From: Chiloscyllium plagiosum
Taxonomy: Eukaryota
NCBI RefSeq assembly: GCF_004010195.1
Contig: NC_057719.1
Coordinates: 68,444,567 to 68,508,566 of the forward strand
Direction: 5' to 3'
Length of the DNA stretch: 64,000 bases
Each line of letters starts with the position of its first letter. The first letter of the stretch is position 1. The position numbers were made by a program, and so were the translations under genes. Positions 3,935 to 64,000 of the stretch are shown here, piece after piece. Below the pieces are notes generated by a model that did not search any database, was not told the origin of the DNA, and saw nothing but the letters and a program-made list of their open reading frames with translations.

Positions 3935-5104
3935 TTTGAATCTATTGCTTCTAACAGAACAAGGGATGTCTACACAGGGGCCAGACTCACTGAGCTTCGA
4001 TTCATGAAGTGTTCATTTTTATCATTAATTGGGATTCTGAGCTTTTTACCAGGACTTTGCAGATTGTGTTTTTCACTGTCTTTTCAAACTATTCCTTGTT
4101 GAAATAATTTGAATTCCATTGTTTTAAAATTAGATGGAATTCTTTCGAGCCAATGTGTTGAGGCTCACTTTTCATGATTCCACAACTTTTCATGATCCCA
4201 CAGCCTCAAAAAAATCTATTCCTCCCCAATTTAATTCATCGCTTGGAAAAGATGACATTTGTACATTAAAAGTTCCATGAAGAGATGGTGGTGTCAGATG
4301 TCCAGGTTGGAGCTCTGGAGGAGTAACCATCAAGCTGCAGTCCTTCAGCATCTGTTCTGTCAGGCAATATTTCCATCTGATGGTTGGGAGAATGGGAAAC
4401 TGCATAATAATGAGGTGAGATTAAATAGAGAGATGTTAATATACGCAAATAGGCCTCTCGTCACTGTTCAACATCTCCCAGTTCAATATTTGGTTAGGTA
4501 TTGGGACCTTTTGCTTTTCATGTTGAGAAGCTCCTGGCTTGTGGTTTTCCCAACTTTCTTTCTGATGTCCACATCATGGGAAGATTTTGCCCTTAGTATC
4601 TTCAATCCTTGATCAAACAATTATCAATCCAGCTCCTTTTCTTAATGCAATTAAGTAACTGAAATTCTAACTGCAGGTTTCTTATCATCACATTTTTAAA
4701 ATATGGTAGCTGTTGTAGTTCTGGTGATGGCATGCATAACTTGATGAGATGGTTGGACAGCCAGCATTCCAAAAGTCAAGGAGATTTATTTATTCTATGA
4801 TCTTGGATCATGGACAACACTTTTCTTGAAGGTTGTTTTTCTTTGAAGTCCTTTTTTTGGAAGGCATTTGGTGCTAAAGTGAATGATAACATAACAATTA
4901 ACAGTTCTTTGTACAGAATAAGCAGCACGCTGAATACAGTGAGTACATAAACCTTTTTAGAAAGTGAACTATTTTCAGAGAAGAATATGTTTCTTTTTGA
5001 CATTTACAAATTTCTATTTACAATGATCATTTACTATTTCTTCGCTAGCTTCATGAAAAATGGCATTATGCCCTTAAACTTGTCTTGGTTTTCATCAAGC
5101 TTCT

Positions 5105-5950
5105 GTATAGGAGCAGGATCAAACTATTTGGTCTGGCGAGTTTCCTCAGTCATTCAACATGGTCATGGCTGATCTCCAGCTTCAACTCTACTTTACTGGT
5201 TGTTCCCCATATCCTTGAACACTGGAGAGACTAAAGATTTGTTAATCTCATTCTTAAATATATCCAGTGAAGGATCATTCATAACTCTTAAAAATAGACA
5301 ATGCCACTGATTTGCAACTCTCTGAACAGAGAATTTTCTCATCATCTCAGTCCTAAATGAACAGCTGCTTACACTGAGATAGTGCCCAATGTTCCAAATT
5401 CTTAGCCACGTGAAACAACTCCTGTGTCTATTCTGCCAATCTTATATGAGGTCACTGCTCATTCTTCTGAATCTCCAAGATTATATACTTAATTTAATCA
5501 GCCTGTTATCATAGGACAGCCCTCTTGTCCCAGAGACAAATCTAAATACAGACTGATGAACCTACTAAACAGGAGCATATGTAAACCATTCACCATCTCG
5601 CACTTGCTCCACAATTCAATAAGACCGTGGCTCGTGTTTTGAATTCCTTATTCCAATTTACCCCCGATAATCCTTGACTTTTCAGCCTAACAAGAATCTA
5701 TCCACCATTCTCTGAAAAATATTCAATGACTGCACCTTCAGAGTTCCAACAGTGCACGACCCTCTCAGAGAAAAGAAAATTCTCCTCACCTCTGTCCTGA
5801 ATGGGTGACTCCTAATTTTAAATCTATACTCTCTGGGTCTGGACTAAACCATGAAAGGAAACATTCTTTCCGTGTCCATTAAGGCCATTCAGGACCTTAC
5901 ACAGCAATCAAATACACACATCATCCCTTACTCTTCTATATTCTTTTGGA
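5105..5950 (-). mobile_element. Two old CR1 3' end fragments
   Basis: Degenerate CR1 3' UTR and ORF2 C-terminal sequence starting near 5107 and again near 5570. Confidence 0.65.
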
Positions 5951-5989
5951 AACAAGCTCAAACTGTCCATTCGCTGCCTTTCCTTATAT

Positions 5990-7360
5990 TTTGTTCAATT
6001 ATCTGACCTATCATTCATCTTTGCAATTATATGCTTTTTTCTTAAATTTGACAGATTCCGTAACTCCTTCAGTGTACCCCTTATGGTGGGTTCTTTGTTT
6101 AGAGTTTTTTTTTAATATTCAGAATGCATTTATTTTAAATATTCTGAAATATTCCCTTAAGTGTTTGCCAGTACATCTCAATTGATCTATCCCCTAGCCT
6201 AGTATACCAGTTCACTTCAATTAGCTTAGCTTTCATGCCCATGTAACTGCCCTTGTCTAGGTTTAAAATACTAGTCTTAAACACAGTCTACTCCCTTTCA
6301 AACTGGATGTATAATACAATTATATTTGATCACTGTTACCTAGGAATGCCTTTACTCTGAGCTCATTACCAAATCCTGTCACATTAACAATACCAACTCT
6401 ATATAAACAGCTCTCTGGTCATTTCTGAATGTGCTGCTCCAGGAAAATACCTCACAAGTATTCTACGAACTCCTTATCCAAGCCACTGACAATCTCATTT
6501 TTCCAGTTTATATGCACATTAAAATCGCCCATGATTATTACCGTCGCTTCATCATAAGCACTCAATATTTATTCTTGTATATTTTGTTCCACACTGTAAT
6601 TACTGTTACAACATTTGTAGACCATTCCCACTTGTGATTTCTTTGCCCTACTGTTCCATGTCTCTACTCAAGCCACTACTATATCCTGATCTCCCAAAAC
6701 AAGGTTGTTATTTCTAACTATTGCACAAATGCCATCCTTGATGGGCAGTGCTATCCTTCCACCTTTACCTAGCTTCCTTATTTTCTTAAATGTCAATAAC
6801 TCTCAATATTCAGTATGTGATCCCTGTCATGTCTTTGTAATGGCTATCGGGTCTTATTTATTTCACTTTAATGTGCGCCATCAATTTTTGTACTTTGTTA
6901 TGAAGGTTATGCGCATTCAGCTAAAGAGTTTTTAGTTTTTTTTGTTATTTCTGTAATACTTGATCTTAAATATATTCCTTGGTGTTTTTACTCTGCTCCT
7001 TCCAGCCATTCTCTTACCTTCATTTCCTATATTAATATTTTCTTCGGTATCATGTTCTTAATTTTTGTTATACCACTTATTTCCATATTTGATAGCCCAC
7101 TATTTAGTTTGAAACCATCACTATTTCCCTAGTTAATGATTGGCAAAGCATCCAACCCCAGCATATTTCAGGTATAGCCCCTCTTTCCCCAGTACTGGTG
7201 CCAGTGGCCCATGAACCTGGGATTCAGTTTTCCCACACCAACCTTTGAGTTAGGTATTCATCTGTCTAACTTTATATACTCTATGGCAATTTATACATGG
7301 TTCAGGGAGCCATCCAGAGATTGTAACTTTGAGATTCTAATTTTTGAATTAGAACCTGCC
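5990..7360 (-). mobile_element. Old CR1 fragment: ORF1 esterase end and ORF2 APE endonuclease
   Basis: Minus-strand remnants IIMGDFNVHINW (~6500-6540), LNAHNLHNK..IAITKT (~6825-6920), FMGHWHQYWGK (~7180-7220). Confidence 0.75.
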
Positions 7361-7364
7361 TCTT

Positions 7365-7705
7365 CTTTTATTCATTCATGAAATGAGGACGTCAGCAACT
7401 AGGCCAGCATTCATTGCCCATCCCTAATTGTCCCAAGGGCAGTTAAGAGTCACCCACATTGTTGTGGATCTGGAGTCACATGTAGGCCAGACCAGGTAAG
7501 GATGGCAGTTTCCTTCCCCAAAAGTTTTTTTTTCTGATAGTCAACAATGGATTCATAGTCATCATTGGACCCTTAATTCCAGATTTTCTTTTAATTGAAT
7601 TCACATTCCATCATCTGCCATGACAGGATTTGAACCTAAGTCTCCAGAATATTAGCTGACTCCCTCAAATAACAAGCCAGCAATAATTCCATTAGGCTGT
7701 CACCA
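7365..7705 (-). mobile_element. tRNA-derived SINE (family B here, CR1/L2-type 3' tail)
   Basis: Matches copies at 25430, 31040, 35490 and 59756; B box GGTTCAAATCC on minus strand; tail GGGCAATGAATGCTGGCCTAG. Confidence 0.8.
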
Positions 7706-8936
7706 CCTCCTCATATTCTCAATACAGAGCCTCTGTATGGAGAATATGGCATGAGATAAGGAACACAGTTATCTGGACTATTGCTCTTTGCTGCAAAAAA
7801 TGGTGTCAATCAACATCATCATATACTCACCTACTGCCATTACATTCTTTATTGCTCCACCCACTTGAATAGCTTCTACACCATGGAACTGTGGTCAATT
7901 AGCACATCCACCCTGCAGAACCATTTTCCTCCAAACAGGCTGAGAGATTTTAAAACCTATTGGACCATTGCAGAAGCTGACATTCCTGCATTCCTGATCT
8001 CTGGGTCCCAGTAGCTGCCTTGCGCACAGTCGCACTGTCCTAAATCAGAAGAACCTATCCCAAATAGTGTGACTGCTCCTGTACAAAGAATCTAGGTAAC
8101 ATTTAACCTCCCCGAGACATTGCAATGTTGTACTTCAGCCTTAAGGTAATAGATTCATGAGCCAAAACTGCTTGAACAAATAATTGGCGTGATCCAGGGC
8201 AAACATATCTACGGTATTCAAGGGCTCCCAAATACTGCAGCCTTGACATATCATCTGAACTCACATCCATAATGAGATTTTATAAATTACTTGTATTATT
8301 CACTTACTTATTCTGACTTTTACATATTTTATTAACTTAACAATAAAAAAGACCTTAACCACTTATCAGTGACTGACCAAAGAATCTTTCTCTTTTATAG
8401 AGAAAACCAATTCCAATCAGCTCCAATGAATCCAACTCTTTCTCCAACTGCTTGTCAAGGTGCCCTTTTCTTGCCTGCTTCTCTTGGTGATGCTGACTGC
8501 CAGTCAAGGAGTTCTCATCACCTCTACCCCTCTCCTCAATCTAATGAACCCCTGAAGTGCCACCTCCATGGAGTATATTCTTACTCAGATATAACCTGAA
8601 CTAGTCACAGTATTCCACGTATCATCTCACTAAAGTCCTGCACAATTGTCATAGGATTTTCTTATTTTGGTTTTCCTTTCTCTTGCAATAAAGGCTCACA
8701 AGGCCATTTGCCTTCCCAAGTTTCTCTGAATGTCAATATTTGGGGGTTTCCCAACTTCATTTTAACGATCTGTTTTTCTATTTTTGCTACCAAATGAATG
8801 AACTCCAAGTTCCCAGTATTATTATTCCAGCTGCCATCTTGTTAAGCATTCACCTGAATCAATCTGTTCATCTTTGCATGCTCTTTGTGTCCCCCTCACA
8901 ACTTACTTTCCCAGCTTCTGTTCCATTATCAACAAA

Positions 8937-9545
8937 AAAGAACAAAGAACAAAGTAAATTACAGTACGGGAACAGATCCTTCGGCCCGTCAAGCCTGCGC
9001 TGATCCAGATCCTCTTTCTAAACTTGTCACCTATTTTCTTAGTGTCTGTATCCTTTTGCTCCCTGTCCATTCATGTATCTGTCTAGATACCCCTTAAATG
9101 ATGCTATCATGCCCACATCTACCACCTCTGCTAGCAACGCATTCCGGGAACCCATCACCCAATGTGTAAAGAACTTTCCACGCTTATCTCCCTTAAACTT
9201 TTCCCCTCTCCCCTTGAACTCGTGACCCCTAGTAATTGAATCCCCCACTATGGGAAAGCATTTCTTGCTATCCATCCTGTGTACACCTCTCATGATTTTG
9301 TATACCTCAAAATCAGGTCCCCCCTCAACCTCCGTCTCATGAAAATAATCCTAATCTACTCAACTTCTCTTCATAGCTAGTGCTGTCCATACCAGGCAAC
9401 CTCCTGGTGAACCCACTCCGCACCCCCTCCAAAGCATCCATATCCTTTTGGTAATGTGGCGACCAGAATGTATGCAGTATTTCCAAATGTAGCCGAACCA
9501 AAGTCCTATACAACTGTAACATGACCTGCCAACTCTTGCACTCAA
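8937..9545 (-). mobile_element. CR1 LINE 3' fragment
   Basis: ORF pieces QLYRTLVRLHLE..FWSPHYQKD and RGHEFK..FFT; (AAGAACA)n tail. Confidence 0.9.
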
Positions 9546-9706: not shown

Positions 9707-9938
9707 GAGAGAGAAAGTGAGGGCTGCAGATGCTGGAGATCAGAGCTGAAAATGTGTTGCTGGAAAAGCGCAGCAGGTCAGGCAGCATCCAAGGAACAGG
9801 AGAATCGGTGTTTCGGGCATAAGCCCTTCTTCAGGAAAGCCCTTCCTGAAGAAGGGCTTATGCCCGAAACGTCGATTCTCCTGTTCCTTGGATGCTGCCT
9901 GACCTGCTGCGCTTTTCCAGTAACACATTTTCAGCTCA
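9707..9938 (-). mobile_element. Penelope-like mini-element: inverted pseudo-LTR hairpin plus unpaired 3' tail (family A)
   Basis: 95-bp inverted arms 9743-9837 and 9843-9937; ~35-bp unpaired tail 9707-9742; 12-bp TSD TTTCTGTTAACT (9695-9706, 9939-9950); homologous to the 3' end of the GIY-YIG element at 31185-31877. Confidence 0.85.
9843..9877 (+). ncRNA. Minimal type I hammerhead ribozyme motif
   Basis: CTGAAGA-A-GGGC(TTAT)GCCC-GAAAC-GTC at 9846-9873: both core boxes, helix II and a palindromic ACGT helix III. Confidence 0.7.
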
Positions 9939-19850: not shown

Positions 19851-20945
19851 AGTGTGAGGGATATGGGCCAAGTGCTGGCAAGTGGGACTAGATTACGTTA
19901 GGATATCAGGTCAGCATGGACGAGTTGGACCGAAGGGTCTGTTTCCCTGCTGTACATTTCTATGACTATGACTGTACATGGGGAAAAATATGAAGTTATA
20001 TACTTTGGATGAAGAAAAGGGACAAATATTATTTTATCGGGACTGTAGAAAGCTGCAGCACAGAGGGATTTGGAGCTTCCTTATACATGAATCTCAAAAA
20101 TGCTGGCATAAAAGTTCAATGGGGAGCAGGGATACCAAATGGAATGTTGGCCATTATTTCAAAGGGAAAGGAGTATAAAAGTAGGAAGTCTTGTTAAAAC
20201 TATACAAGATGCTAATTAAAAGGCAATTGGAATATTGTCAACTGTTTTATTCCCTTAATCTTAACAAAGATATACTAGCATTGGAGTCAAAGCAGAGAAG
20301 GTTCATTTGGTTGAGTTTGGGTATGGAGGGGTTTTCTAATGAGAAGAAGTTGAGCCGGTCAGGTCTGTCCTCAGAAGAATGAATAGCAATATTATTGAAA
20401 AACATAAGATTCTCAGGGGGCTTTGAGGAGAAAGTGAGGTCTGCAGATGCTGGAGATCAGAGCTGGAAATGTGTTGCTGGAAAAGCGCAGCAGGTCAGGC
20501 AGCATCCAGGGAACAGGAGAATCGATGTTTCGGGCATAAGCCATTCCTGAAGAAGGGCTTATGCCCAAAACGTCGATTCTCCTGTTCCCTGGATGCTGCC
20601 TGACCTGCTGCGCTTTTCCAGCAACACATTTCCAGCTCTCAGGGGGCTTGACAGGGTCAATGCTGAGTGGTTGTATCCTATTCTGGGACAGTCTAGGACC
20701 AAAGGGCAAAACTGAAGATTAAGGGGTCACATCTTTAGGCAGAAGAGACCTTTCTTCTCATAGCAGGTAGTGAATCTGTGGAATCTTTTGCCATAGAAGA
20801 TTGTTGAGGCTTAGTCATTAAGTACATTAAAGGCTGACATGAACAGAGTTTTAATCAGAAAGGGACTTGGGAATTATTGGGAAAAGTGGAGTTGAGGATT
20901 ATCAGATCAGCTGTGGTCTCATTGCATAGTGGAGCTGACTCATAT
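19851..20945 (+). mobile_element. CR1 3' end (19851-19975) and an older CR1 ORF2 3' fragment
   Basis: (ATGACT)n tail; LKLYKMLIKRQLEYC..ALESKQRRF; interrupted by a PLE hairpin. Confidence 0.8.
20424..20636 (-). mobile_element. Penelope-like mini-element, inverted pseudo-LTR hairpin (family A)
   Basis: 13-bp TSD TCTCAGGGGGCTT (20411-20423, 20637-20649); same layout as 9707-9938; hammerhead motif 20547-20574 with GAAA changed to AAAA. Confidence 0.85.
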
Positions 20946-30272: not shown

Positions 30273-30497
30273 TAAAAACTGAAAGAACTGCAGATGCTGG
30301 AAATCAGAAACAAAAGTAGAAATTGCTGGGAAAGTTCAGCAAGTCTGGCAGCACCAGTGGAGAGAAATCAGAGTTAACGTTTCGAGTTGAGTGACCTTTC
30401 TTTTGAGGGTCACTTGACCCGAAACGTTAACTCTGATTTCTCTCCACAGATGCTGCCAGACATGCTGAGCTTTTCCAGCAATTTCTACTTCTGTTTC
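30273..30497 (-). mobile_element. Penelope-like mini-element, inverted hairpin (family B)
   Basis: Inverted arms ~30306-30400 and ~30405-30498; tail with CTGCAGATGCTGG; TSD TTCTCCAAATCCAAA (30258-30272, 30495-30509); partial hammerhead GGGTC(ACTT)GACCC-GAAAC-GTT. Confidence 0.85.
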
Positions 30498-31039
30498 TCC
30501 AAATCCAAAACTCATGACGTGTAAAGAAATGAAGTAGCTACATGGACTCTGGTTACTTGTTTGGCATTGTCGCTTCCTAACAAAAGTAGAATCAGAAACA
30601 AAGTATGTTGCAGACCGGATGCCTGGAAGTCAGATATCAATAAATTTTTGATGCTTCTATAAAGCCTCCTATGATTAAATTTTGAAGAAAAATAAGCAAT
30701 TACCAATGTGAATATATCCTTAACATACACAAGCTTTGCAATTCATTCTCTTTGTCTTCTACAAGTCCAACAGCATTCACTCAGCCTCTGCCATGAAGGA
30801 TTAGGCTCTTCAGGATATCATGTCCTCCACCACTTCTGGGGAATATGTCTAAGGAATGAGGGAAGTAGCTCCAGGAGTTTTTGGAGCCTATAGGACCTCG
30901 GACTGTGATCATGAATTGTGGAACATAGCTGACATGTTGCAGCTCGCCAGACATCACCTCTGCTACACAGAAATTGCTAGATTAACTTCTAATAATCAAC
31001 TATATGGTCAAGATTGTTTGTGGTCAGGATTACAACCAT

Positions 31040-31925
31040 ATAATCATTGTTGTTAAAAATCCATCTGATTCGACAAATATCCTTTAGAGTAGGAAATCCG
31101 CCAACTTTTTGTCCTTCATGTGACCCCAGGCCACATATAAATGTAGCTGACTCTTAACTTGGTTAAGGGTTGGACAATAAATGCAGAGCACTTTAGGGAA
31201 CATCTCTGGGACACCCTCACCAATCAACCCCACCACCCCGTGGCGGAACATTTCAACTCCCCTTCCCACTCTGTCAAAGACATGCAGGTCCTGGACCTCC
31301 TCCATCACCATTCCCTCATCATCTGACACCTTGGAGGAAGAACGCCTCATCTTCCGCCTCAGACCCCGTGGCGGAACATTTCAACTCCCCTTCCCACTCT
31401 GTCAAAGACATGCAGGTCCTGGACCTCCTCCATCACCATTCCCTCATCATCTGACACCTGGAGGAAGAACGCCTCATCTTCCGCCTCAGAACACTTCAAC
31501 CCCAGGGCATCAATGTGGACTTCACCAGTTTCCTCATTTCCCCTCTCCCCACATTACCCCAGTTCCAACCTGCCAGCTCAGCACCATCCTCATGACCTGT
31601 CCTACCTGCCAATCTTCCTTCCCACTTAGCCGTTCTACCCTCCCTCTGACCTATCACCTTCATCCCCACCTCTATCCACCTATTGCAGTCTTAGCTACCT
31701 TCTCCCCAGCCCCACCCCACCCCCACCCCGGAGGCTCCCTGTCTCATTCCTGATGAAGGGTTTTTGCCCAAAGCGTCGATTTTCCTGCTTCTCGGATGTT
31801 GCCTGATCAGCTGTGCTTTTCCAGCACCACTCTAATTTTAACTCTGATCTCCAGCATCTGCAGTCGTCACTTTCGCCATAAATACTGACCTAGCCAGTGA
31901 CATTCAAGTCCCATGAACACATTTT
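31040..31925 (+). mobile_element. SINE family B split by a PLE insertion
   Basis: SINE body 31040-31184; tail resumes at 31878 (ATAAATACTGACCTAGCCAGTGAC). Confidence 0.7.
31185..31877 (+). mobile_element. Penelope-like retroelement 3' fragment: GIY-YIG endonuclease C-terminus, 3' UTR, pseudo-LTR and tail
   Basis: FREHLWD..PVAEHFNSPSHSVKDMQVL..LEEERLIFRL..TLQPQGINVDFTSF; decayed hammerhead 31750-31777; approximate TSD ATAAATRC. Confidence 0.88.
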
Positions 31926-35347: not shown

Positions 35348-35481
35348 TAGAGACAAAATATCTGCAGATGCTGGAATCTAAGGTAGACAAGCAGGAGGCT
35401 GGAAGAACACAGCAAATGTTGACTTCTCCACCTCCTGATGCTGCATGGCTTGAGGTGTTCTTCCAGCCTCCTGCTTGTCTC
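35348..35481 (-). mobile_element. Penelope-like mini-element, centrally truncated hairpin (family C)
   Basis: 14-bp TSD TCTCTGGGCTAGGT (35334-35347, 35482-35495); inverted arms AGACAAGCAGGAGGCTGGAAGAACAC; tail with CTGCAGATGCTGG. Confidence 0.8.
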
Positions 35482-35489
35482 TCTCTGGG

Positions 35490-35885
35490 CTAGGTGGCAG
35501 TGTAGAATAATTGAGAGACTGGTATTATCACTAAGGTAAAAACAATGACTGCAGATGCTGGAAACAGGTGGCAGTGTAGAATAATTGAGAGACTGGTATT
35601 ATCACTAGACTATTATTGTAGAGACCCAAGTAACGATCTCTGGGTTTGAGTCCCACATGGTAGAGGTTGGGCTCAATTTTTGAAAAATCAGGAATTTAGA
35701 GTCTAACAATGACCATTGTCAATTGTCAGGAAAACCCATCTGGTTCACTAATGTCCTTAGGGAAAGAAATCTGCCATCCTTACCTCGATGTGATCACGAA
35801 CCACAGCAATGTGGGCAATAAATGATGCCAATGAATGCTGGCCTAGACAGTGATGCCCACATCCCATGAATGAATTAAGAATAAA
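35490..35885 (+). mobile_element. tRNA-derived SINE (family B)
   Basis: CCCATCTGGTTCACTAATGTCCTTAGGGAAAG core and family B tail. Confidence 0.8.
35534..35565 (-). mobile_element. Tail-only PLE insertion with a 42-bp direct duplication
   Basis: AGGTAAAAACAATGACTGCAGATGCTGGAAAC between identical 42-mers 35492-35533 and 35566-35607. Confidence 0.75.
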
Positions 35886-36473: not shown

Positions 36474-36576
36474 ATCATGATTTGGAGATGCCAGTGTTGG
36501 ACTAGGGTGTACAAAGTTAAAAATCACACAACGCCAGGTTATAGTCCAACAGGTTTAATTGGAAGCATGAGCTGTC
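36474..36576 (-). mobile_element. Short 3' terminus of another Penelope-like family
   Basis: 9-bp TSD TAGGCCCAG (36465-36473, 36577-36585); GGAGATGCC tail resembling the other PLE tails; family assignment from recall. Confidence 0.55.
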
Positions 36577-58089: not shown

Positions 58090-59165
58090 GCTACTCTCAT
58101 GACTTGCTCATTCTGACTATAAACACCAAGAAAACTTTGATCATAGGACAAGGTGCTGCATCTCTGCCCCTAATCACCCTTAGTAACAGCCTGCTGGAAG
58201 TGGTTAGCAAATCCTCCCACCTCGGGTGCACAGTGACAGTCAATCTGCCTCTTGCTGCAAAACTTCATACTCATAACTATTTTCATCTACCTTGTGAAAT
58301 GCACATGCAATAACATCAGGCTGACTCACGGGACCAAGCTGTTGGTTCCTGTAGGCTGTGTTCTTAACACCTCTGCTGTATGGCAGTGAAACAGGAACAA
58401 CTTACAGTTACCAGGAAAAGAAATACAACAAAATAAAAAACTGTTGACGCTGGAAATCAGAAACGAAAACAGAAATTGCTGGAAAGACTCAGCAGGCCTG
58501 GAGGAGGGAAAGCAGAGCTAAGGTTTTGGGTCCAATGACACTTCTTCAGAACTAGTAATAGCTAGAGTAGCTCCTAGCTGCTGAAGGGTCACTGGACCCA
58601 AAGTGTTGACTCTGCTTTCTCTCCACAGAACACAACAATTTCCTGCTTCACCATCTGCTGTGGACATATTCTAGCAGGACAAGCTCATGAATGCAGTGGT
58701 CCTTTCAAAGACAGCTTCCAAGTGTTAACATTCATCAAATGAAGATGGCTTCAGTCAATCAGGCACATCTGTAGAGTGGAAACAGTTGCACACTCAAGGA
58801 CTTTCTGGAGAGTGAAATAGCAGGAGCAAAATGATCAGTGAGGAGCCCAATGATTCACTTCAAGGATGCTTACAATTGTGGCATGAAGCCTCAGACCTTG
58901 ACTACCACATTTTGCTGACAAAATGGGGAAACAGCCCCTGTGGGCTACCATGACATCCAATAGCTACAGCTGCTTGAAAATAGCTACCCAATGCTGAAAA
59001 CAGCCCACAACCCCACAGTAGCTTCATGTATGGCATTTGTTGCAGAACCTGCTCTTAAGATTTGCCTTTAATCACCAAAGATGCATCTGTTGTAGACCCT
59101 TCCTGCTCTTCCCAGCTAAATGGATTGATGCTGTGCATCTATCATCTCTCATTAATGGAAGGATG
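58090..59165 (+). mobile_element. RTE-clade LINE 3' fragment
   Basis: LTINTKKTLIIGQ..LPLITL..LEVVSKSSHLGCTV; LLYGSET-like at ~58375. Confidence 0.75.
58431..58628 (-). mobile_element. Older PLE mini-element, partial hairpin (family B)
   Basis: Homologous to 30273-30497; minus strand reads AGTT-CTGAAGA-A-stem-(G)AAAC; second decayed hammerhead on + at ~58578-58610. Confidence 0.7.
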
Positions 59166-59282: not shown

Positions 59283-59755
59283 TTGGCTCAATGGTTACAG
59301 TCATATCTCTGAATCAGGAAGGTGTAGATTCAAGTTGCATTCCAGAGATTAAGAAAATAATCTATGATTAACACTTAGTTGCTGCACTGTCAGAGATGTT
59401 AAACTGGGGTCAAAAGTGTGGTGCTGGAAAAGCACAGCAGGTCAGGCAGCATTCAAGGAGCAGGAAAGGAGACATTTCAGGCATAAGCCTTTCTCATTCC
59501 TGATGAGGGGCTTATCCCTGAAACATTGTCTCTCTTGCTCCTCAGATGCTGCCTGACCTGCTGTGCTTTTCCAGCATGGCTCCTTTTGATTCTGATCTCC
59601 AGCATCTGCAGTCCTCACTTTCTCCAAGATGTTGAACTGGGGCCTTATCTACTGTCTCAAGTGATGTAAAGAAAATTTTTTTGGCAATACTGTGACAAAG
59701 AGGAAAGGCACTCTCTCTGGTGTTCTGCCCCAAATTTATTTCTCAAACAACATCA
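59283..59755 (+). mobile_element. Deu-domain SINE (SacSINE1-like) split by a PLE hairpin
   Basis: Head TGGCTCAATGG..GATTCAAG; Deu-like GCTGCACTGTCAGAG..GTTAAACTGGGGCC..CTGGTGTTCTG..AAATTTATTTCTCAA. Confidence 0.7.
59410..59626 (+). mobile_element. Penelope-like mini-element, inverted hairpin (family A, older)
   Basis: 16-bp TSD AGATGTTRAACTGGGG (59394-59409, 59627-59642); CTGATGA at 59500; 3' tail present. Confidence 0.85.
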
Positions 59756-61149: not shown

Positions 61150-61250
61150 GGAGAAAGTAAGGACTGCAGATGCTAGAGAATCAAAATGTCGACTCTCCTG
61201 GTTCTCGGATGCTGCCTGACTTGCTGTGATTTTCCAATGCCACCCTCTTC
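61150..61250. mobile_element. PLE mini-element: tail plus one inverted arm
   Basis: ~18-20-bp TSD TCAACACTGTCAYTTCAYGG (61132-61151, 61249-61268). Confidence 0.78.
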
Positions 61251-61989
61251 AACACTGTCATTTCATGGTTAGTCAAAATTCAAAGAAATCTTCTTTCCCT
61301 GTCAATTTGTCGGCTTGACTTAACTGCTTCTTCTCAGTTCCTGTCCTGAGTTGGGTAGTTTGCACAGGATATTATAATTGCAATAGCTTATTCAATAGAA
61401 CATTTAAACTCAAACGCACGTGTTCAAAACTACCTCCTTTTTTCTTTCATGTATTGCTCACATGACTAAGAGCTTAAACTTTCTCAGTCTTTTAATAATA
61501 TTCAGAGTTCTAACCAAGTATTCATTCAAAAACAGCATTCTTCCACTGAGGTAACTCATTCCTTAACTGCTCTAAACACATTTTTTTTCCAGGAAGACTG
61601 CACCTGCATCTGAACCCTGTCAGGTCTCCTTCAAACTGAACCAAAAGCTTTTGAACTAAATTTTAATCAAAATCTTGCTCATCCTAGATTCTGCTAAAGC
61701 TAATGACTTATTTTTTTCTCTCCTCTGTTGTAAAACCTGAATAATACAAACAAAAATCCTTAACACTCCAGGAAGTTTGCAATCAACTGCTATTTAGCAC
61801 ATACTTATTTTAAAATTATAGTTCCGGCAAGTCTGAGCTTAATTAATTTAAAACCACTTCGCAAAAATACCAATACCCATAAGTCACTACATTGAAGTCC
61901 AAACACTAGAAAAATTAATAAAGATAAGGCACATACCTTTTCGTCACACTGGTTAGAACGGAAACCGCAAAAGGAGAGCATCCAGTGAA

Positions 61990-62552: not shown

Positions 62553-63048
62553 AGGTCCATCTAGACTTGATGAAGATAAGATGAGTGCTGTTCTGGCCAA
62601 GTATAAGAAATGAGATTAAGGATCACATGGCCAGCGCAGTTTATGTAGCAAAATACAGGGTAACAACTTCAACAAAAATGCTAAAAATTATAATAGATAC
62701 AAAATATGTTATTATTTCCTGCAAAATTTAATCATTTTCTAAAAGTAAAGGTATTACTGAAAACTGGACCATTCTTTGACTTTGTATATTCAGACTATGT
62801 TTGCTGATTACTTTGATGTCGGGACCTGAGGTCCTTTGTGTCTCACTGAATACAAATCATGTAGAAGGGAGCTTGTATGACACCAACAAAAGTCTTATGT
62901 TAAGAACAATGTATAAGTAGCAAAATCAGGAAATCTGAATTAACAAAACCATGAGATACGTTGGTTTTAAAAAAGGGTCAGCTCGAATAACAACATGAAT
63001 AAACAATGTCCATGTCCCTGTCACTTCAGATCCTGTTGGCCCACAATG

Positions 63049-63181
63049 ATCATTCCTGATGAAGGGCTCCTGTCCGAAACGTCGATTTACCTGCTTCTCG
63101 GATACTGCCTGACCTGCTGTGCTTTTCCAGCACCACTTTAATCTTGACTCTAATCTCCAGCATCTGCAGTACCCACTTCTG
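63049..63181 (+). mobile_element. Solo PLE pseudo-LTR with tail
   Basis: 8-bp TSD CCACAATG (63041-63048, 63182-63189); homologous to 31745-31877. Confidence 0.85.
63052..63087 (+). ncRNA. Minimal type I hammerhead ribozyme motif
   Basis: CTGATGA-A-GGGC(TCCT)GTCC-GAAAC-GTC at 63056-63083; helix II kept with one G-U pair. Confidence 0.7.
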
Positions 63182-64000
63182 CCACAATGGTAAATACCCA
63201 TTTACCCATTTATACTTAGACATATTTGTGAGAATCATACATTCAGATAAAAAGGGTACCTACAACTCCTGTAAGACAAGATATTCCAATTTGCTGAGTG
63301 GTATTTAAACAGTAAAACTATATATTTTTTAAAAATCCACACACTATGATCTCTCTGATTGCTAAGTTGTGTAAATCCTCTTCTTTCTTGTCAATAAAAG
63401 TGAAAAGTTTATAAGTATTGGCTACTTCAAAAAATTAACTATTGTAAAATCAATGGCAGATTACTTGCCTAGAGATGTTAATTTGAAAGCAATTAGGTTT
63501 CACGGTAACGAAACACAAGCTACTGCTTGAAGGAAGGGGCAGGAAAATAAAAAAAACTGTTAAACACTGGTGAGGAAGTTAAGAGAAGCCTGTAATGTCT
63601 AGAAAGCCTAACTAAAGTTTGCACAGGATATTATAATTGCAATAGCTTGCTCAATAGAACATTTAAACTCAAGCGCACGTGTTCAAAACTACCTTGGGCA
63701 CACATAGTCACTGGACTGCGAAGGATTAGCTGCAGATGCCTGCATGTATTAGAAGTCACTTTATATCCAAAAATATTCTCTTCAAGTATTTCCCTTATTA
63801 TGTTCAGGTGGAATTACAGAAGTAATGGTTTTGTGGACACGGTGAAAAAGTAATTGTTATTGGGTTCTTTTACCGACATTCAAAAGATAAATGTTAGTGC
63901 GATCATTTCAAATATAGGAATACAATTTACCTGGTTTTAATGTACCATATTCTAAGAATTATTCTTTTGAGAGTTATTGGGCAGGATTTCCCTCTGGGGT

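Follow-up and report, generated by a model that had tools for sequence, protein, structure and literature searches.

Minimal hammerhead ribozymes have been described in the pLTRs of Penelope-like elements (PLEs), and the accessible text of one survey reports them from fish, coelacanth, Xenopus and reptiles, with sharks not named in that text (PMC4209133). Hammerhead activity is low according to the same source, and its dependence on protein has been reported in PMC11167929. The latter study also describes unprocessed RNA as the dominant substrate and internal priming at two tail-defining sites, with extension on both target strands. For Drosophila Penelope, a TATA-less internal promoter is documented (PMC2377424), and a CX2-5CxxC linker is common to Neptune and Nematis elements (PMC8557442). 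Here, we compare these systems with a locus at positions 63049-63181 of the window, which is the whole 64-kb stretch of Chiloscyllium plagiosum DNA that was analysed.

Our main reading, to which we assign a probability of roughly 85%, is that a Penelope-like retrotransposon, of Neptune type by its linker motif, left a short end piece with a target-site duplication at 63049-63181. Positions 63056-63083 would be the minimal hammerhead of this element, likely inert at the locus and predicted to cut only as a dimer in the parent RNA, probably with the help of protein. The piece lies on the plus strand and has the form of a solo, 5'-truncated pLTR with tail (subfamily A2), corresponding to the reference from -6 to +127, counted from hammerhead C3, at 92%. 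An 8-bp target-site duplication (TSD) flanks it, with the left copy at 63041-63048 and the right copy at 63182-63189 (both plus strand); the first two bases of the right copy possibly belong to the element end. The minimal type I hammerhead core at 63056-63083 (plus strand) consists of CUGAUGA, an extra A, a helix II with one G-U wobble, GAAA, a palindromic helix III and GUC, and its predicted cut falls after 63083. The 3' strand of helix I follows at 63084-63087 (plus strand), forming three of four pairs. An initiator-like motif occupies 63050-63055 on the same strand; its A at 63052 opens the 5' strand of helix I and, judging from the sequence and the pile-up of 5' ends, would be position +1 of the parent RNA. 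Copies 91-95% identical to 63049-63181 were found genome-wide. Both the motif class and the element structure are already published, and what is found here extends that known class by a further genome.

Longer copies pointed to the parent element. Upstream of the motif they carry a pyrimidine-rich stretch and then the C-terminus of a GIY-YIG endonuclease, present in the window at 31153-31541, and in such copies the motif sits in a PLE pLTR joined to RT and GIY-YIG coding sequence. A first look at the 3.56-Gb genome gave 105,620 candidates for the GIY-YIG C-terminus piece. The GIY-YIG domains of L037 and L048 scored above the Pfam cut-off (24.7 bits for L048). In the L048 copy, which contains a frameshift, RVT_1 was matched upstream of GIY-YIG with an E value of 3.4e-5, below the cut-off, and a Pfam search of the L032 RT fragments gave zero matches. 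A C-X4-C-X2-C linker between RT and GIY-YIG was observed at six loci (L032, L037, L040, L044, L045 and L048), and a feature search gave scores of 0.96-0.97 for clusters of RT and GIY-YIG. At 26 of 30 loci, the sequence beyond the fixed end of A4 stubs was one shared ORF start (800 exact pattern matches). Direct or inverted pLTRs, a 30-40-bp tail at one end and a TSD were all found. These sequence features indicate that the layout is that of an endonuclease-bearing (EN+) PLE, of Neptune type by the linker motif. An intact full-length ORF was not seen, because the first long-frame candidates for a full element proved to be assembly gaps of N and were rejected. Young long copies with inverted arms sit across assembly gaps at L052, L061 and L062, so intact elements are probably under-assembled.

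The window contains several other copies. The head-to-head family A pair at 9711-9937 is composed of a tailed minus arm (9711-9837) and a tail-less plus arm (9843-9937); a 12-bp duplication flanks it, and an intact core (9846-9873) lies inside a 95-bp hairpin. A second family A pair (20426-20639, duplication of ~13 bp) has both cores broken, and a third, degenerate one (59412-59625, ~16 bp) has a core at 59500 with C11.1 and G16.2 changed. Family B is represented by a head-to-head pair at 30284-30498, with both arms truncated within the core and lacking CUGANGA (~15 bp), and by a degenerate pair at 58459-58627, the origin of an AGUU-CUGAAGA half (58553-58543, minus strand). A short, degenerate and coreless inverted remnant of family A was found at 61150-61264 (12 bp). 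Duplications of 12-16 bp accordingly mark five head-to-head pairs or remnants (9711, 20426, 30284, 59412 and 61150), and the arms of 9711-9937 and 20426-20639 are unequal by 32-33 nt, the length of a one-sided tail. The longer family A copy at 31153-31877 (plus strand; tblastn E 6e-26; blastn 82% over 524 nt) comprises the broken, partly duplicated GIY-YIG C-terminus, a pLTR, a core at 31750 with G12 lost, and a tail. We also observed a family C arm truncated 3' of the core (36483-36567, minus strand; reference +30 to +114, 94% identical), a short inverted repeat of another degenerate family (35385-35480) and an isolated subfamily A4 tail fragment (35533-35565).

The window was scanned with a strict descriptor (core, helix II of at least 3 bp, palindromic helix III and NUH, with helix I optional). 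The scan returned exactly two cores, 63056-63083 and 9846-9873, whereas 100 dinucleotide-model sequences gave a chance expectation of 0.01 on average (maximum 1) per 64 kb. Both are the family A cores described in the earlier note, and each contains CUGAWGA, the extra A (between 9 and 10.1), a 4-bp helix II, GAAA, the ACGU palindrome and GUC, together with a G10.1-C11.1 pair. The cuts predicted after 63083 and after 9873 had been placed correctly, the 63049 copy does lack an antisense arm, helix III is a loop-free ACGU palindrome in families A and B as described, and helix I of family A is weak as had been said (two pairs, U-U, one pair). The conserved core CUGANGA...GAAA...NUH was complete in both family A cores and in neither family B copy of the window. 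The intact family B core reported previously was a composite of two broken copies, because 30407-30432 lacks CUGANGA while retaining helix II, GAAAC, GUU and AACU, and the minus-strand copy at 58553-58543 keeps AGUU-CUGAAGA with G12 lost, helix III broken and helix II mismatched. A natural intact family B core is located outside the window, at L204. The proposed helix II covariation between families A and B amounts, within the window, to one changed and one added pair, and the GYCC variation within family A is a G-U wobble with no compensatory change; real covariation appeared only across five families genome-wide. Hammerhead families were absent among the seven matches of an Rfam scan at E<=1, and the miRNA and snoRNA matches were rejected, being below the gathering score and reflecting long hairpins.

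The genome-wide comparison drew on 120 stretches (1,157,976 bases), each 10 kb long, of which 20 came from beside the window and 100 lay at regular steps along large contigs; subfamily A1 was sampled from genome stretches only. The sample contained 51 strict cores, or 44 per Mb (~157,000 if extrapolated), from at least five hammerhead families: 31 in A, 3 in A3, 1 in B, 5 in C, 6 in D, 2 in E and 3 degenerate A-like. The extra base between 9 and 10.1 was present in 49 of them. Pair 1 of helix I was C-G in families A and C, U-A in B and A-U in D and E; pair 2 was U-A in A and B, A-U in C and C-G in D and E; pair 3 was U-U in A and U-A, G-C or C-G in the other families. Helix I formed three of four pairs with U-U in A, including the 63049 copy, all four in A3 and B, and three in C and D. 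Watson-Crick pairs at positions 1-4 numbered 42, 48, 16 and 32 over the 51 cores, and since copies within one family are not independent, covariation was counted by families. Helix II varied at pairs 2 to 4, with G10.1 constant. Helix III was ACGU in A, B, D and E and AGCU in C; the descriptor required the palindrome, and therefore only this variation is informative. Covariation was also observed in helix I, which the descriptor had left free. Comparison of the families indicates that helices I, II and III covary between them. Families D (loci L070, L110, L131 and L292) and E (L064, L126 and L269) differ by an extended helix II, and their TATA-like box precedes the core by roughly 45-55 nt; family D may be Poseidon-like.

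The 5' ends of the stubs were analysed in arms gathered by their sequence 3' of the ribozyme, which were then aligned to long references (14 for A, 4 for B and 5 for C); we left out arms close to the edge of a stretch and those whose junction contained N. Among 165 unbiased family A arms, 40 reached at least 40 nt upstream of C3, only 10 ended within the 31 positions from -39 to -9, and 47 ended at -8 to -1, most often at -4 and -3. Of the arms reaching -3, 30 of 86 ended at -5 to -3, compared with 10 of 50 over the 31 positions upstream. An enlarged, de-duplicated set with search hits added comprised 243 A, 92 B and 81 C arms, in which the ratio of ends at -11 to -7 to those at -6 to -2 was 14:59 for A, 4:24 for B and 13:13 for C. 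Family C differed from A and B together (18:83; Fisher p 0.0016, with bins chosen after the data were seen). Of 39 solo A arms with an end between -12 and +3, automatic calling assigned a TSD to 14.

This edge coincides with an initiator-like A, whose position is -4 in families A and B and -8 in family C. Upstream of that A, a TATA-like box begins at 29 nt in B and at 30-32 nt in C, and the only box of family A, at a comparable distance, is T-rich and non-canonical. The TATA and initiator consensus is in part general knowledge of such promoters; another part came from PMC5287114. Whether the RNA starts just before the core appears close to evenly balanced. We tentatively propose, at slightly below even odds, that the hammerhead is the extreme 5' end of a Pol II mRNA, with the first four capped bases forming the helix I strand, and that the stubs are run-off (strong-stop-like) cDNAs from single or twin internal priming, which would map the PLE start and the integration path across families.

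By this start-site reading, transcription would begin at the initiator A, and the ribozyme would constitute the first 32 nt of the mRNA. The element RT would prime at two internal sites, ~+90 and ~+128, on uncut RNA. Run-off at the RNA 5' end would leave solo stubs such as 63049-63181, and if both target strands were primed, pairs of head-to-head arms, one of them tailed, would result. A cut after C17 would release some 32 nt with the cap and would decap the message, because the first four capped bases are the helix I strand. The RT templates would mostly be uncut, since only 10 of 243 family A arms started at +27 to +30, the cut-site region, whereas 59 started at -6 to -2; enrichment of copies starting at the cut site was not seen among the collected arms. 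The start of L327 at +28 was rejected as a cut product owing to microhomology with the tail. In a single case, L323 (G000:C1:38726660-38729681, minus strand), the copy holds the ORF start and has its 5' end exactly at the predicted cleavage site, making it a possible product of cut RNA. L312 begins at -3 and extends beyond the ORF start as far as another pLTR, in which it ends.

The main rival to the start-site reading supposes read-through RNA on which the enzyme stalls or switches template near the ribozyme. The stubs would then be ordinary 5'-truncated copies primed at the 3' pLTR, with 5' ends clustered by stalling or switching at the hammerhead or at an upstream hairpin, an account that we find plausible while placing it somewhat under an even chance. 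Read-through templates do exist, because 52 of 243 arms extend at least 40 nt upstream. The distribution has a shoulder into the core, with 58 of 243 A arms ending at -1 to +10, and the nine solo A copies that end at -4 showed no excess of a cap-derived G (present in three). A small hairpin ends at -5 to -7 in subfamilies A2 and A4; however, A1, A3 and B share the edge without that hairpin, as judged by eye. Stalling also fits poorly with the shift of the edge along with the initiator in family C and with the distance of 29-32 nt between TATA-like box and A in families B and C, and a stall caused by the ribozyme would be expected at its 3' side. A 3' splice site as the cause of the edge was rejected by eye, with no AG at a shared subfamily position and no shared upstream exon. 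In the accessible literature on Penelope, shark, hammerhead ribozymes and strong-stop, a body that leaves out Repbase and most subscription papers, neither these families nor the start-site edge were found described.

It is unlikely that the short elements are self-propagating units, such as retrozyme-like circles or hairpin MITEs, instead of by-products of the full element. Their copy number is very high (143 arms in 81 stretches), and internally deleted head-to-tail repeats with a core per unit (L312, L321 and L236) have the layout of non-LTR retrozymes (bioRxiv 10.64898/2026.07.22.740005). However, the inverted junctions vary from copy to copy, the solo stubs have one core and are not bounded by cut sites, and the fixed end is internal to the PLE leader. 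Head-to-tail, internally deleted copies with a 266-320-nt period and a hammerhead in each unit were observed at L312 (G000:C1:21851619-21854640, minus strand), L321/L322, L314, L317 and L236, and their unit order (pLTR, ORF start, jump, pLTR) is retrozyme-like. Among the head-to-tail copies, both cores are strictly intact only in L312 and L236, and an assembly gap interrupts L313. The tandem arrangement expected of a retrozyme, with complete hammerheads in two or more successive units, was found in these two loci, whereas the window contains no same-strand intact pair within 1.5 kb.

The earlier note had interpreted such motifs as minimal hammerheads thought to cleave as dimers, which agrees with the sequence and with the literature (PMC4209133, PMC6765202), and its expectation of cross-family covariation also held after further families had been included; a Penelope-like parent did not figure in it. 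Its choice of the 63049 copy as the best test candidate was not supported, in view of a poor helix II, a weak dimer and the lack of an intact tandem partner within 1.5 kb. The predicted pairing probability of helix II in this copy was 0.00 in a short construct and 0.23 with flanks, compared with 0.94-1.00 for 9846, A3 and B and 0.45 for C in short constructs. The predicted double-hammerhead dimer of 63049 reached -4.1 kcal/mol versus -17.4 kcal/mol for two free monomers, and the A3 dimer reached -13.3 versus -14.4 kcal/mol. In its genomic context, the 9846 core is locked within the 95-bp hairpin. No same-strand pair of intact cores within 1.5 kb was found in the window; natural tandem pairs occur elsewhere, at L312 and L236, with cores 280 and 320 nt apart. 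For these tandems, the active fold lay 15-17 kcal/mol above the minimum in a nearest-neighbour model, which is blind to core contacts. The unfavourable dimer energies agree with the low activity (PMC4209133) and protein dependence (PMC11167929) reported for related ribozymes. On these predictions, the head-to-tail pairs L312 and L236 and the full-helix-I copies L083 (A3) and L204 (B) should be better dimer substrates, and the 63049 copy is probably not active as a ribozyme.

We also assessed how the copies decay. Of 96 core-spanning family A arms, 60 retained the 11 conserved bases and H17, and 28 of these also retained helix III and the closing pair. CpG positions in the core were changed in 117 of 576 cases, similar to a downstream CpG, indicating that the copies decay at CpGs like inert DNA. 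Non-CpG changes numbered 31 of 955 in the core versus 153 of 2844 downstream (p 0.007, confounded by base composition and subfamily differences), a deficit that may be compatible with weak selection on copies. Selection would act on active master elements, and inserted stubs would decay as inert DNA.

That 63049 is a working ribozyme cutting a host transcript, in trans-dimers or with a chaperone, is highly improbable. Every conserved core base is intact and an antisense arm is absent; however, such intactness needs no selection, because 28 of 96 arms are strictly intact anyway, and the low helix II probability and weak dimer also argue against it. Family RNA was present in a single-cell run (X5, ~2% read), with 1162 reads at an identity of at least 88%, almost wholly on the repeat and in both orientations. 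Only 9 of these reads were at least 99% alike, and zero fell on the unique flanks 62700-63023 and 63186-63293. The X5 reads showed no pile-up of starts or ends in this 3' single-cell library, which is blind to 5' ends; 579 reads on an A3 copy likewise lacked a pile-up, and 0 reads of run X6 were placed. In addition, 105 A3-type reads aligned at window position 63132 pass AATAAA into an A-run (agreement with the consensus 0.65) that lies ~70 nt beyond the predicted cut, suggesting that the pLTR contains a poly(A) site.

A chance match in repetitive DNA, with ribozyme function lacking even in the master element, is hardly credible despite the zero Rfam hammerhead match and the weak family A helix I, given the very low chance expectation, the covariation of helix I pairs 1 and 2 and of helix III (ACGU/AGCU) across families, and the in vitro cleavage of related motifs (PMC4209133, PMC11167929).

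The genome offers several covarying families and natural tandem pairs for a dimer assay, and the start-site reading gives a precise prediction, namely an mRNA start 4 or 8 nt before the core. If it is true, the ribozyme would be a 5'-end decapping switch, a role beyond the trimming of long precursors, and head-to-head hairpin insertions would gain a simple origin.

Among known systems, the canonical type I hammerhead of Rfam, with its 6-bp helix I and loop contacts, was not matched, with zero Rfam hammerhead matches obtained. Non-LTR retrozymes (bioRxiv 10.64898/2026.07.22.740005) are PLE-derived, non-coding and carry a type I hammerhead, and comparable tandem units exist elsewhere in this genome, whereas 63049 is a single unit with a TSD and no tandem array. 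The Anolis Poseidon element PAc (Frangieh et al. 2024, PMC11167929) has a pair of internal sites at which RT starts, ~110-120 nt downstream of where helix II begins, close to the tailed end here at ~117-120 nt, and uses uncut RNA as template, as would be the case here. Its ORF begins at stem II, whereas the first long-frame ATG here lies ~37 nt past the tail end, in a frame open further upstream; moreover, PAc belongs to the Poseidon clade and the present element is of Neptune type by its linker motif. EN+ PLE insertions (PMC8557442, PMC3846280) share RT, the CX2-5CxxC linker, GIY-YIG, head-to-head arms, a one-arm tail and TSDs with the copies described here, although most insertions here hold only the last 90-135 nt. 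The rotifer EN+ PLE Pen2a has a TATA box and initiator inside its pLTR, and the accessible text of these two sources does not relate the initiator to the ribozyme or to copy 5' ends. A further comparison is with the minimal hammerheads that PMC4209133 (Cervera and De la Pena 2014) describes in metazoan PLE pLTRs. Helix II has 4-5 bp in families A-C versus 7-8 bp in the Schistosoma families, and the ~157,000 strict cores extrapolated here compare with about 4,000-9,000 in coelacanth and Xenopus, counted with a different descriptor. The two groups share the core, the extra base between 9 and 10.1, the G10.1-C11.1 pair and a palindromic 15.2-16.2 without loop 3; the short helix I, of 4-5 bp in the published class and of three or four pairs here, may be comparable, and they are further alike in their many families per genome and their mostly dispersed single motifs.
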